NCBI GenBank assembly: GCA_965215055.1
Contig: OZ244046.1
Location: 169,138-233,137, forward strand
Direction of reading: 5' to 3'
Length of the DNA stretch: 64,000 bases
From: Gammaproteobacteria bacterium
GTDB lineage: Bacteria; Pseudomonadota; Gammaproteobacteria; UBA4575
Shown here one piece after another: positions 6,365 through 10,163 of this stretch. The notes under the pieces were generated by a model. It was not told where the DNA came from and searched no databases. It saw nothing but the letters and a program-made list of their open reading frames with translations. A program made the position numbers and the translations under genes. Position 1 is the first letter of the stretch, and each line of letters opens with the position of its first letter.

Positions 6365-6495
6365 TTTTGCGCCTGGCACCTACGAGCATCCAAATAACAT
6401 ATAACCCATTGTAATAACTAGAATATCCTCATTTCTGTCTGGCACCTTCAAGAAGTACCTTCTGGTGTAGATGAAATAACCAATACAAATGGAGA

Positions 6496-8700
6496 GTGCG
6501 TATGAGCAGGTATTGCGGAGAGAAAATAGTCGAGCCAATACTCCGTGCAGCTCAGCACTGGAAAGATGTGGGGTTGCTATCGGATAGTTCCATATTCGAT
6601 AGAGGTGCAATATGGACATTGTCAAACTTCGAAGCTCTAAATCAGCACGTTGTAAATCAGCCTAAAGAGGGAAAAAAGAGGAATTTTTTCCAGAAACTGG
6701 AGGGTCAGCTTGAACTGACGGTGCCAGGGGTGAAGCAACTCGCAGCCGAGATGCTGTGGCTAATGTTTCTCTGCCCTAGCAACATTAGTGTATCGAAAAA
6801 GCGCGAAGGCATAGAGCGTATATGGAAATGGTCAGGGGAGGCCTTTCCAGAGGATTCCGAGTGGATAAAGGATGATGTTCTGGGTGGTGTAGGCAGTGCA
6901 GGTACAGCTTTTAACACCAAGCGCTGGTGGGAGTTGAGGTTTTTTATTCGTACAATGATTGCCTTCAAAAGCCTTGCAGACCAGGAGCAAAATAAGCTCC
7001 TTTCCGATGGTTGGGAGTTCGCGCAATGGCTTGAACAAGTCCCCGAATGCGACGCTCGCCAATTGCGTCATATGTTCCTGTTTTTACTATTCCCTGACAA
7101 TTTTGAGCGTATTTTAGGAAGGAGAGATCGACGAAGAATTATCCAGAGCTTCTCAGGAAAGTCTCTGGCACAGGTCAAGAAGCTTTCGGCATTAGAGATC
7201 GATCGGAACCTCCTCGAGATACGTAGGCAAAAGGAAGAGGAGTATGGCACTAAGGAGTTGGACTTTTATGCTACCCCGCTTCGTGATCTCTGGGGTGACT
7301 CTAAGGTCGTTAAGGCAGCAAAGCAGCCAGATGATAAAAAGCGGAACGGAAGTGTCAAAATGGCCATAAACCAGATTCTGTATGGTCCTCCAGGAACAGG
7401 AAAGACCTATAGGCTTAATCGTCTAAAAGAAGAGTATTCAGGCAGAAGGCAAACCCTGAGCCGTGATGCATGGTTAATTCAGGAAATGCTGGATGCCAAG
7501 TGGTTTGATGTGATCTTTGGCACATTGTATGACCTGGGCGGTGAGGGCAAGGTCAAGGCAATTCTAAATCATGAGTACGTACAGATGAAGGCGGAGGCTT
7601 TGGGGCGTGGTCGAAACATCGCGAATACAATATGGAGAACCCTTGGGGAACATACTCGTGAAAATTCCAGTACCTCCCGATACAAGCGTCGTAGTGCACC
7701 CCTTGTATTTGACAAGAAACCAAATAGCGTATGGTCGTTGGTCGATGACTGGGAGGAAGAATGTGCAGAGCAGGTGGAGCAAGCCAAGAAATGGAAAACT
7801 GGTCCCAAGCAAGAGGCGTCTTATCAACGGTATGAGTACGTGACGTTTCATCAAGCCTATAGCTACGAAGATTTCGTCGAGGGTATTAGGCCTGTTCAGA
7901 ATGAGGAAACTGAAAATATCGGTTATCAGGTATTGCCCGGTGTATTCAAACGGATATGCCAAAGGGCAAAAGCAGACCCCGATCAGCGGTATGCGATTTT
8001 TATTGATGAGATAAACAGGGGGAACATTGCCAAAATATTTGGTGAGCTGATTACCTTGATAGAAGAAGATAAAAGGGCGATATATAACGATGCCGGAGAC
8101 CTGAAGTCTGGGATGGAGTTGACTCTTCCTTATTCAGGTATGCGATTTGGTGTTCCTGAAAATTTGGATGTCTACGGGACAATGAACACGGCGGACCGCT
8201 CTATAGCCTTACTGGATACTGCGTTACGACGTCGTTTCCAATTCGAAGAGTTAATGCCTGATGCTGGCGTAATTGTTGGCTCACGTGGTGATGGTTGTAT
8301 CGAGGATGGGGGTGGTGGCGTTATCAACCTGCGTGCCTTACTGGAGGCTATGAATCGTCGTATCCGCTTCCTGTTAAACAGAGATATGATGATTGGGCAT
8401 GCCTATTTCATCGACGTGCGTAATTTTGATGATCTCAAGGTGGTTTTGTTCAACAAGATTATTCCCCTTCTGCAGGAATACTTCTATGAGAACTGGCACA
8501 GGATCCAGTTGGTATTCCGAGATGTAGGTCCGACGGGAGAAAAACTGGAACCACAGATTGTATGTCATGACACGCTAAACGAAGTAGAGGTGCTTGGGTT
8601 CGATCATGATGACTTTGATGATCTTACAGAGTACTGGGTTGTAGACTCGGATGAGATCACGCCCGATGCGGTCAGGAAGGTATACGAAGAAGGTGCCTGA
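6496..8700 (+). CDS. mcrB: McrB-like AAA+ GTPase subunit of a type IV (modification-dependent) restriction system; long form with an uncharacterized N-terminal domain
   Basis: Walker A ILYGPPGTGKTY; McrB signature FHQAYSYEDFVEGIRP...; Walker B/McrB motif AIFIDEINRGNIAKIFGELITLIE; arginine finger region TMNTADRSIALLDTALRRRFQFEEL. About 290 aa precede the AAA+ module, and about 125 extra residues sit between Walker A and the FHQAYSYEDF motif relative to E. coli McrB. Confidence 0.8.
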   Translation: MRMSRYCGEKIVEPILRAAQHWKDVGLLSDSSIFDRGAIWTLSNFEALNQHVVNQPKEGKKRNFFQKLEGQLELTVPGVKQLAAEMLWLMFLCPSNISVSKKREGIERIWKWSGEAFPEDSEWIKDDVLGGVGSAGTAFNTKRWWELRFFIRTMIAFKSLADQEQNKLLSDGWEFAQWLEQVPECDARQLRHMFLFLLFPDNFERILGRRDRRRIIQSFSGKSLAQVKKLSALEIDRNLLEIRRQKEEEYGTKELDFYATPLRDLWGDSKVVKAAKQPDDKKRNGSVKMAINQILYGPPGTGKTYRLNRLKEEYSGRRQTLSRDAWLIQEMLDAKWFDVIFGTLYDLGGEGKVKAILNHEYVQMKAEALGRGRNIANTIWRTLGEHTRENSSTSRYKRRSAPLVFDKKPNSVWSLVDDWEEECAEQVEQAKKWKTGPKQEASYQRYEYVTFHQAYSYEDFVEGIRPVQNEETENIGYQVLPGVFKRICQRAKADPDQRYAIFIDEINRGNIAKIFGELITLIEEDKRAIYNDAGDLKSGMELTLPYSGMRFGVPENLDVYGTMNTADRSIALLDTALRRRFQFEELMPDAGVIVGSRGDGCIEDGGGGVINLRALLEAMNRRIRFLLNRDMMIGHAYFIDVRNFDDLKVVLFNKIIPLLQEYFYENWHRIQLVFRDVGPTGEKLEPQIVCHDTLNEVEVLGFDHDDFDDLTEYWVVDSDEITPDAVRKVYEEGA

Positions 8701-8702
8701 TT

Positions 8703-9956
8703 GTGGAGGTGCTGTCGGTAATCGAGCATAAGTCTCTCCAAATTCTACAATCTCGTGGATGGGGTCAGCAGGCACTCGATTATGCGCATGCTGACACACT
8801 CGATAGACTTGAGAAAGAGCTTCCAGCGAAAGCTTGGTCTTGGGGAAAACAGCAAATCAAGTTTGGGCATTATTGTGGTGTCGTCTCATTGGGAAATTTA
8901 TCTATTGAGATTCTTCCCAAGATTTACGGTGCTGAGGTTGACCTGGAGTCCAGCCGTCATGCGTTGGTACGCATGCTTTCCAAGGCACACCGATTGAAGC
9001 TTCATCGAGCGAGCACAGCTGGAATTGCGCTCCAGAAGTACAGTCTTCTTGATGTGTTCATATTGAATTTTTGTGACCAGTTGCATGCCGAGATGACGCA
9101 GGGGATGATTCGAACGTACATAGAGCGCAACGAGAATCTCAACGTATTACGTGGAAGATTACGAATTGAGCAGCAGTTCAAGCAGAACTTGGCTCACCGT
9201 GAGCGGCTTTTTTGTCAATATGATGAGTTAAGCGAGGACAATGTTCACAACCAGGTATTGAAATATGTGCTGAAAATCTTGCTAAAAATGGCGGTAGGGA
9301 ATCGCGCACACCTTCAGGTGGCAGAACTCCTTATGCGCTTTGATACGATAAGCGATGTGGCTGTAGATGCAGCTGTACTGGACTTGCTGAACTTTGATCG
9401 TTCAACTACCAGGTATGAGCCGATTTTCGACCAATGCAGGTGGTTCATGGAGGGTATGCATCCAGATGTCCTGGCGGGAAAGGAAACCTGCGCTTCATTC
9501 TTATTTGATATGAATCGGTTATTTGAAGCATACGTTGGTGCTGAGTTAAGGAAAAAGGCATGGGGGGAAGGACTGCGGGTAAGAGAGCAGGGCCCGCAGA
9601 AGTATTTCGCTTATCGTAAGGATACCGATAAAAATGTCTTCGTGATGAAGCCTGACGTTTCGCTGATGGATGAGAATAATCAGGTTGTTGCGATCGCGGA
9701 TGCCAAGTGGAAACTTCTGGATGAAGAAGAAACGAAGTTGGGAGTATCTCAGGCAGATCTGTATCAAATAGAAAGTTACGCGACAAGGTATAATGTAAGG
9801 AAATTGTTTCTGGTTTATCCCATGCAGCAGAAGATGACGATGCCGGTTCAACTAGCTCTTAAGGGATCGGGAGCGACGTTGAATATTGTGCCTTTCGATG
9901 TCACTGCAAGTAGCAGTAACGAACTACCAAAGCTGTCTTTTGGAGAGTGGCATTGA
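8703..9956 (+). CDS. mcrC: McrC-like endonuclease subunit (PD-(D/E)xK) of the McrBC system
   Basis: GTG start 2 bp after the mcrB stop (translationally coupled). 417 aa, the size and position of McrC. A C-terminal PD-(D/E)xK-like segment (VMKPDVSLMDENNQVVAIADAKWK) is consistent with the McrC nuclease core. Confidence 0.7.
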   Translation: MEVLSVIEHKSLQILQSRGWGQQALDYAHADTLDRLEKELPAKAWSWGKQQIKFGHYCGVVSLGNLSIEILPKIYGAEVDLESSRHALVRMLSKAHRLKLHRASTAGIALQKYSLLDVFILNFCDQLHAEMTQGMIRTYIERNENLNVLRGRLRIEQQFKQNLAHRERLFCQYDELSEDNVHNQVLKYVLKILLKMAVGNRAHLQVAELLMRFDTISDVAVDAAVLDLLNFDRSTTRYEPIFDQCRWFMEGMHPDVLAGKETCASFLFDMNRLFEAYVGAELRKKAWGEGLRVREQGPQKYFAYRKDTDKNVFVMKPDVSLMDENNQVVAIADAKWKLLDEEETKLGVSQADLYQIESYATRYNVRKLFLVYPMQQKMTMPVQLALKGSGATLNIVPFDVTASSSNELPKLSFGEWH

Positions 9957-10163
9957 ATAATGTCTCCTTCTGGTAAACACAAATAGGTTTTCCCCGCACG
10001 CTTTCGAGCTGGTGCCTGCTGGAACCGAGTGGATTCGGCAACTCGTCGAGGCACCACAATTACAAGTAAGCTATTGATATTGAATCGCAAAAAGTGCCCG
10101 TTTACAATTGAGTGGGACTAATGCTTTTCTCAGTAAGTTGCGAAACTACAATAATAAAGTGCT

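Follow-up and report, generated by a model that had tools for sequence, protein, structure and literature searches.

The window analysed here, a stretch of 64,000 nucleotides of contig OZ244046.1 from a gammaproteobacterium of the UBA4575 lineage (assembly GCA_965215055.1), carries a two-gene McrBC-like cassette of ~3.76 kb between the housekeeping genes guaA and tadA (Table 1). All GTPase and PD-(D/E)xK nuclease motifs of the pair are intact, and the notable feature of this copy is that its McrB lacks the EVE reader domain present in its closest kin. The longest open reading frame (ORF) for the McrB-like protein occupies positions 6496-8700 and encodes 734 residues counted from a GTG; the ATG at 6502, which lies behind GGAG and yields 732 residues, is the likelier start from the sequence context. 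The database protein P0001, identical to the window McrB, is also 732 residues long; an exact look-up of P0001 yielded no contig, and gene context was drawn from its cluster member P0122 and from homologues. The mcrB stop codon (TGA, 8698-8700) is separated by 2 nt from the GTG of mcrC, with a purine run (GAAGAAGG) upstream, an arrangement in which translational coupling of the two genes is plausible.

No integrase, transposase or methyltransferase is detected in Pfam scans of the 30 other ORFs across the 64 kb, no tRNA lies within 11 kb of the island (the sole tRNA of the window is a tRNA-Ser at 21897), a Rfam scan of positions 5800-11300 returns zero matches, and scans for sigma-70 promoters and terminators yield hits at chance level only. 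An earlier note on this DNA, which had placed the two ORFs at the same positions and reported neither integrase, transposase nor tRNA nearby, is borne out on both counts. The comparison of base composition that it proposed leaves the island indistinguishable from its flanks: its guanine-plus-cytosine (GC) content is 0.46-0.47 versus 0.43-0.48, its GC content at third codon positions (GC3) is 0.49 versus 0.37-0.46, and codon usage does not set it apart either, so that composition is uninformative at this locus.

Table 1. Features of the guaA-tadA interval, with positions counted from the first letter of the window
Feature	Position	Strand	Basis and remarks
guaA	4787-6364	+	ORF map
Left att-like repeat	6334..6365	+	Functional guaA 3′ end including the stop codon (…AAAACCGCCCGCTACTATTGAGTGGGAATGA; …ATTGAGTGGGAATGA); holds the GAGTGGGA core
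guaA-mcrB spacer with two 21-nt direct repeats	6366..6452 (repeats 6366-6386, 6432-6452)	+	Repeat search; each repeat bears CTGGCACCT
mcrB-like gene, 732 residues, AAA+ GTPase subunit	6502..8700	+	ORF map, homology
Conserved all-α N-terminal domain, McrB residues 1-265	6502..7296	+	14 helices
Linker, McrB residues 266-288	7297..7365	+	Clean-gap junction; EVE (about 145 residues) or DUF8425 here in relatives
Walker A GPPGTGKT, McrB residues 295-302	7384..7407	+	Sequence, structure alignment
Predicted winged-helix domain, McrB residues 309-440	7426..7821	+	Between AAA+ helix α1 and strand β2
AAA+ core and lid, McrB residues 441-675	7822..8526	+	FHQAYSYEDF strand, Walker B, NxxD, RRRF; Pfam AAA_5
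Acidic C-terminal tail, McrB residues 676-732	8527..8697	+	Conserved; net charge −14 over 57 residues
mcrC-like gene, 417 residues	8703-9956	+	DUF2357-type N-terminal part and PD-(D/E)xK nuclease
Right att-like repeat	10090..10122	+	Out-of-frame relic of the guaA 3′ end (AAAAGTGCCCGTTTACAATTGAGTGGGACTAA; …ATTGAGTGGGACTAA)
tadA	10164-10616		ORF map

The motor of the window McrB retains the complete set of catalytic signatures. Walker B residues D502 and E503 lie within FIDEINR, and the signature MNTADRS at residues 561-567, accompanied by RRRF, assigns the protein to the NxxD clade; the Nx(x)xD signature is needed for GTP hydrolysis in McrB (Bell et al. 2024, PMC11090510). Comparison with solved AAA+ domains shows strong matches to McrB of Thermococcus gammatolerans (6ut3, E=2.9e-50) and of Escherichia coli (6hz4, E=8e-37). 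The downstream protein matches the Pfam family McrBC (PF10117) with E=7.8e-75 (252 bits versus a cut-off of 23.9) and T. gammatolerans McrC (6ut5_G) with E=1.1e-19, the KPD…DAK columns being in register, and its nuclease motif, P317-D318 … D333-A334-K335, is encoded at nt 9651-9707. These results agree with the earlier note, which had recognized a pair with all McrB GTPase motifs and had assigned the second gene to McrC from its size and position. The NCBIfam equivalog models score well below their cut-offs (NF008457, for E. coli McrB, 131 bits versus 637 and over residues 438-669 only; the McrC equivalog, 107 versus 338), and on these scores the window McrB and McrC are homologues, not orthologues, of the E. 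coli pair. The PADLOC models scanned give no Type IV match; McrB fits two ‘REase_II' models over its AAA+ region and McrC fits none.

A homology search with the window McrB retrieves 3,322 proteins at E<=1e-5, and the N-terminal 265 residues, an insertion in the motor, the lid and the acidic tail are conserved in every aligned member of the subfamily. McrC lies directly downstream in every homologue context examined, and automated annotation describes the McrB proteins just as ‘AAA family ATPase'. The family PF28529, seen in every homologue in precomputed annotation, was considered as a possible family for the N-terminal domain or the insertion and was rejected, PF28529 being McrB_lid; no Pfam family covers either region. 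The tail, which is absent from E. coli McrB, has a median net charge of −9 across the family; as pure speculation, it might dock on the basic winged helix described below as an autoinhibitory mimic of DNA.

Residues 1-290 of McrB return zero sequence matches in Pfam, NCBIfam, PADLOC or the PDB. An AlphaFold2 model built, as was that of the insertion, on an alignment of 46 sequences predicts an all-α domain of 14 helices (predicted local distance difference test score (pLDDT) 91.5, predicted template modelling score 0.90), and this model finds no match when compared with the PDB and viral structure libraries, nor is there any in PHROG. The domain is recognizable by an invariant RQLRHMxLFLLFPDxFERI block, by a glycine-rich loop of the GIGSxGxGF type (here GVGSAGTAF) and by conserved residues K65, E83, K100, R186, R189, E202, D234 and R241. 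A phmmer search over 1.84 billion representatives finds it in 1,871 clusters, and in 150 of the 150 matches listed it stands at or near the protein N terminus, usually as residues 1-265. Motif parsing and Pfam assignments show it at the head of McrB cores with the winged-helix insertion, without it, with an insertion between β2 and Walker B, or of the NxD type, and also in front of GmrSD_N/DUF262 proteins, an HNH nuclease and a KAP NTPase; DUF3578/MrcB_N, EVE or both often come next in the protein. The domain occurs as well on plasmids of Sinorhizobium, Rhizobium, Brucella, Ketogulonicigenium, Ralstonia, Burkholderia, Mycobacterium, Streptomyces and Rhodococcus. Throughout the family the domain is acidic, with a median isoelectric point (pI) of 5.5, and between the window and the conspecific, near-identical strain L082 it has diverged by 3.0 changes per 100 residues versus 11.4 in the winged helix. 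The N-terminal domain is thus, by these searches, an unnamed module that is widespread among Type IV-like enzymes.

The second element that distinguishes the motor is the insertion itself. Residues 291-308 and 441-490 of the window McrB align with residues 26-43 and 54-102 of the T. gammatolerans protein, ~130 residues thus replacing ~10. The AlphaFold2 model of residues 303-447 (pLDDT 84.8) displays the topology H-H-b-H-H-H…b-hairpin-H, and by its H-b-H-H-b-b core and its structural similarity to known winged-helix domains the insertion is predicted to adopt that fold, with a recognition helix at about residues 373-383 and a wing at about 403-413. The winged-helix core is basic (pI 9.6 in the window, family median 9.2), and the recognition helix, following loop and wing together reach a pI of 11.6. 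Fifteen of the 36 amino-acid changes that separate the window McrB from that of strain L082 fall within this 132-residue domain (binomial P=8e-4), and 10 of these lie in residues 365-399, which comprise the predicted recognition helix and the loop that follows it. The ratio of nonsynonymous to synonymous substitution rates (dN/dS) is ~1.5 over residues 365-399 versus 0.30 over the rest of McrB, a contrast drawn from small numbers (14 nonsynonymous and 3 synonymous changes) in a sub-window that was picked after the data had been seen. Between close strains, McrB varies most on the predicted DNA-reading face of its winged helix, and this domain appears a better candidate for DNA contact here than the N-terminal domain. 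Insertions in the GTPase domains of McrB have been described as frequent and as likely to encode specificity domains (Bell et al. 2020, PMC7641849; 2024, PMC11090510).

Structure prediction had been proposed in the earlier note for both regions, and its outcome, a helical N-terminal domain and a winged-helix insertion, upholds part of what was claimed there. The N-terminal domain is indeed a real unit unrelated to the E. coli reader, with a size of ~265 residues followed by a 23-residue linker rather than the 290 residues proposed. The insertion, put at about 125 residues between Walker A and FHQAYSYEDF, is equally real and likewise unrelated to that reader, and the suggestion that it might serve oligomerization gives way to a predicted winged-helix DNA-binding domain. 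The specificity module had been said to appear uncharacterized, which agrees with the absence of any counterpart of the N-terminal domain, or of the insertion, in Pfam, the PDB or the literature searched; that literature contains no description of PF28529, of DUF8425/8426 or of a winged-helix insertion in McrB. The possibility had also been raised that both are standard features of a well-characterized subfamily: they are standard, but in a large subfamily that is unstudied.

Across the subfamily alignment, a variable slot lies between the N-terminal domain and Walker A. It holds EVE in McrB forms of ~876 residues and PF28527 (DUF8425) in forms of ~955-1010 residues, and it is empty in forms of ~706-754 residues, among them the window McrB, in which scans find no match to EVE (PF01878), DUF3578, YTH, SRA or Mrr_N. 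In the alignment, EVE is present in P0002, P0005, P0018 and P0056 precisely where the window McrB shows a clean gap (…LRDLWGDSK|VVKAAKQPDDKKR…), and the flanks of this gap, LRDLWGD(S/A)(K/R) and VV(K/E)AAKQPDDKKR, are common to the window protein and the 876-residue EVE form P0002. The nearest relatives, P0002 and P0003 from Thiodiazotropha symbionts, are 80-86% identical to the window McrB over the best BLASTP segment, and a neighbour-joining tree of the shared columns, computed without bootstrap values, places the window McrB as sister to these two, inside the EVE clade; the minimal forms P0021 and P0095 with P0098 are likewise nested among EVE forms. Because the gap is clean, its flanks are conserved and the protein is nested within the EVE clade, the window McrB probably lost the EVE reader that its closest relatives carry.

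Reader-less forms recur, in 21 of 118 relatives, and McrC adjoins McrB in every minimal-form locus examined (L081-L085). A further site that recurs in related genomes lies between ribonucleotide reductase and the operon for ATP synthase (L083, 4937-10542; L084, L085 and L087, about 7001-11253). The three arrangements present there, namely a DUF8425-McrB, a minimal McrB, and a DUF8426-McrB in tandem with a minimal McrB, the two sharing a single McrC, argue that the middle module is swapped while the rest stays. The closest EVE-McrBC homologues, again in Thiodiazotropha symbionts (L089, 1-9975; L093, 1-9982), stand at the end of a DISARM-like operon that encodes a SNF2 helicase, an MmeI-type methyltransferase of 1,424-1,493 residues, a SMEK_N protein, an AAA_21/DUF3696 ATPase and a 180-residue protein; neither the SNF2 helicase nor the large methyltransferase of DISARM is present in the 64-kb window. 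Taken together, the alignments describe a large and experimentally unstudied subfamily with a common layout of N-terminal domain, variable reader slot, GTPase with winged helix, lid and acidic tail.

The history of the locus was examined by scanning species-representative genomes with GuaA. In the three closest reference genomes (L001, L002 and L003, with GuaA 84%, 77% and 71% identical to that of the window), guaA is followed directly by tadA and mcrBC is missing; in L001, 45 bp separate the guaA stop codon from the tadA start. Strain L082 has the same order as the window, guaA-mcrB-mcrC-tadA, and a far more distant genome, L081, likewise carries mcrBC between guaA and tadA, although its GuaA and GuaB are only ~60% identical to those of the window while its McrB and McrC reach 67% and 77%. 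Since the defence genes of L081 are more alike than their flanks, and closer relatives are devoid of the pair, this distribution indicates that mcrBC is accessory and moved horizontally into a recurrent guaA-tadA site, rather than having been simply inherited vertically. The comparison of this interval had been suggested in the earlier note, which regarded the pair as an insertion in a housekeeping stretch; the empty interval in L001-L003 and the duplicated guaA 3′ end described hereafter substantiate that view, and the pair is not a core element of all relatives.

The borders of the island suggest how it arrived. Both att-like repeats contain ATTGAGTGGGA with its GAGTGGGA core, and local alignment of positions 6334-6360 with 10090-10117 yields 23 matches out of 28 with one indel, a score reached by none of 5000 shuffles and the highest of any tile in the whole window. 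The right repeat lies 42 bp from the tadA start, matching the 45-bp spacing of the island-free L001. The guaA 3′ end is an established attB for genomic islands, and the att core of GIsul2 is GAGTGGGA (PMC9376610). Site-specific recombination into the guaA 3′ end is therefore the probable route by which the cassette entered. It may be what is left of a larger island that targeted guaA. Alternatively, it may be comparable to the CR2-sul2 unit of GIsul2, a segment flanked by att sites which has no integrase of its own and is mobilized in trans (PMC9376610).

The spacer between guaA and mcrB holds the only two exact copies of CTGGCACCT in the 64 kb, and TGGCACCTTCAGG is also present upstream of mcrB in the distant L081; the 21-nt repeats are possible operator, promoter or recombinase arm sites. 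A sigma-54 promoter was considered from the TGGCAC motifs of the spacer and rejected, the GG-to-GC spacing being 9 instead of 10 in two copies and the third having no GC element. In L081 (10202-12473), a 57-residue ORF and a gene for a 133-residue antitoxin-like protein of the Xre-type helix-turn-helix/ParS_C kind lie between mcrC and tadA, and the McrC of this genome is called at only 322 residues, yet tblastn aligns 413 residues from position 10205. Between the window and L082, synonymous divergence is 0.05-0.08 for guaB, guaA, mcrB and mcrC and 0.26-0.78 for AMP-binding and ATP-binding cassette transporter genes beyond tadA (window 11188-15981, L082 12555-17351); this jump past tadA suggests a recombination boundary near the right end of the island.

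Considered as a whole, the observations are best explained by an intact McrBC cassette that inserted site-specifically at guaA, lost its EVE reader and engages DNA mainly through its winged helices, an account that we regard as probable. By analogy with the E. coli and T. gammatolerans enzymes, McrB would hexamerize on GTP, McrC would dock in the McrB ring and stimulate GTP hydrolysis, and DNA would be cut after translocation. DNA would be engaged mainly through six basic winged-helix domains predicted on the outer rim of the ring, and the N-terminal domain might act as an accessory sensor of some ligand. The target itself may be a modified base, a sequence or a structure.

Several points weigh against this account. 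That the winged helix sits on the outer rim of the McrB ring is deduced from general AAA+ topology; the clustering of changes in the winged helix is accompanied by raised synonymous divergence (0.12 versus 0.06), so that a small recombination patch instead of selection could have produced it, and the sub-window of residues 365-399 was picked post hoc. The nesting that argues for EVE loss comes from an unbootstrapped tree, and a search for a guaA-end or att relic at the distant L081 locus, which has the pair at the same site, detected none. The window McrB has no recognized modified-base reader, the uncharacterized N-terminal domain and winged helix being its two candidates, so that the label ‘Type IV, modification-dependent' is an assumption; the role given to the N-terminal domain is a guess, since this acidic domain lacks any structural counterpart in the libraries searched; and the subfamily as a whole is experimentally unstudied.

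A more far-reaching version is possible and is put forward tentatively. The N-terminal domain would be a sensor of nucleic-acid modification or of infection with a new fold, common to McrB, GmrSD, HNH and KAP Type IV enzymes of Proteobacteria, Desulfobacterota and Actinobacteria. Specificity would also depend on the fast-evolving winged helix as a second determinant, so that a McrBC devoid of a classical reader could discriminate foreign DNA directly by its motor. If true, this would reveal a new class of reader and a new way to couple recognition to an AAA+ ring.

A rather doubtful alternative reverses the roles, the N-terminal domain itself being the reader of modified bases or foreign DNA that sets specificity and the winged helix only an auxiliary clamp on DNA. 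The earlier note had held something similar, namely that the N-terminal module specifies a different modified-base target. The charged cluster of conserved residues and the GIGSxGxGF loop leave open a role in binding a ligand or DNA. A private specificity module is nevertheless not favoured, because the domain stays constant while readers are swapped behind it, is acidic family-wide, diverges slowly and occurs in ~1,870 clusters, often ahead of known readers.

It is unlikely that the cassette is a decaying remnant, devoid of restriction activity, which lost its EVE reader together with its mobile-element or DISARM context and is kept by chance in a small genome. Such decay would fit the closest relatives having EVE and ending DISARM-like operons, the window having neither a reader nor partner genes, and the dN/dS of mcrB versus L082 (0.38, with 0.18 for mcrC) standing several-fold above that of neighbouring genes (0.01-0.15). 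However, neither ORF is truncated or has lost a catalytic motif, dN/dS stays far below 1 except in the winged helix, the reader-less form is accompanied by an intact McrC in many independent lineages and at conserved loci, and dead genes should soon be purged from a genome of 1.68 Mb. A working system under relaxed constraint is favoured over a remnant because the ORFs are intact, dN/dS is below 1 and reader-less forms recur with McrC.

We consider it slightly less likely still that the trigger sensed by the N-terminal domain is a phage protein or something else other than nucleic acid, and that the domain licenses the motor and nuclease in a regulatory or anti-anti-restriction capacity. The domain is acidic, matches no DNA-binding fold and is fixed at the extreme N terminus, ahead of bona fide DNA readers and on several NTPase-nuclease chassis, all of which would suit such a sensor; on the other side, it has no viral structural counterpart, no precedent is known within McrBC, and positive evidence is lacking. 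Finally, co-option for a non-defence cellular role, as reportedly described for the McrB-family protein PcdA of Staphylococcus aureus (PMC10602043), would agree with the position of the pair among housekeeping genes but is very improbable given an intact, plausibly translationally coupled PD-(D/E)xK McrC, a patchy distribution among relatives, att-like borders and the presence of relatives in defence islands.

The preferred account, that of an intact cassette which inserted at guaA and lost EVE, leaves the current understanding of McrBC in place. Among modification-dependent restriction systems McrBC is the founding member, and epigenetic mapping now uses its reader domains as tools. The subfamily combines a widespread N-terminal domain unmatched in searches of the PDB and of predicted viral structures, a predicted DNA-binding winged helix built into the motor, and readers (EVE, DUF8425 or none) swapped at one slot; the reader-less window copy may offer a natural minimal construct for probing both constant domains. 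Its att-like borders would illustrate how the guaA hotspot can retain a defence cassette whose recombinase has been lost.

Elsewhere in the window, the ORF at 786-1835 on the minus strand encodes 349 residues, of which only the last ~105 (234-338) contain DksA domains; its counterpart in L082 is called at 331 residues, and the protein is either a DksA with a long uncharacterized N-terminal extension or one with a mis-set start. Two ORFs of 457 and 404 residues, at 44158-45531 (plus strand) and 53807-55021 (minus strand), have no Pfam match at E<=1e-5. Among the genes at 38556-42805, 45598-49017 and 57631-60771, an SBP56 (methanethiol-oxidase-like) protein is encoded in one cluster with two SCO1/SenC proteins, a peroxiredoxin and a di-haem peroxidase of the MauG type, and others, for Ftr, a GXGXG Fhc-like subunit, an amidohydrolase, a GHMP kinase and an ATP-grasp protein, are typical of tetrahydromethanopterin-linked one-carbon (C1) metabolism. 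Together with the 1.68-Mb size of the contig carrying P0001, these genes suggest a small-genome methylotrophic or sulfur-metabolizing gammaproteobacterium.

Comparison with known systems places the cassette close to McrBC of E. coli K-12 (6hz4, 6ut6), with which it shares a two-gene operon led by mcrB, the Walker A and B motifs, the NxxD signature MNTADRS, a PD-(D/E)xK McrC and the absence of a cognate methyltransferase nearby (30 other window ORFs scanned). The DUF3578/ADAM reader of 5-methylcytosine in E. coli McrB is absent from the window protein, which adds the unrelated 265-residue helical N-terminal domain, the 132-residue winged-helix insertion and the 57-residue acidic tail. McrBC of T. 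gammatolerans (6ut3, 6ut5) is the best solved-structure match for both subunits and has the same core and nuclease motifs, but its McrB carries an N-terminal YTH-type reader of N6-methyladenine, and only ~10 residues stand in the place of the winged helix. P0002 and P0003, the nearest relatives, belong to an EVE-McrB branch associated with DISARM, from which the window copy differs by having neither EVE nor DISARM genes; this association has been mentioned as a major McrBC branch (Bell et al., PMC11090510), and neither the N-terminal domain nor the winged-helix insertion is described in the EVE-McrB/DISARM literature searched (PMC7641849, PMC11090510).

In its mode of insertion the island resembles GIsul2, which is also inserted at the guaA 3′ end and bordered by direct repeats with GAGTGGGA (PMC9376610); unlike GIsul2, it has no integrase, transfer or resistance genes, its cargo is mcrBC only, and its repeats have diverged (23/28). 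The predicted insertion domain shares with the winged helices of MarR, forkhead, Z-α and histone H5 the H1-b1-H2-H3-b2-b3 fold with its recognition helix and wing, both basic. It differs from them in having no detectable sequence similarity, in being embedded in an AAA+ domain, and in an unusually long, conserved loop of 20 residues between H3 and the wing.

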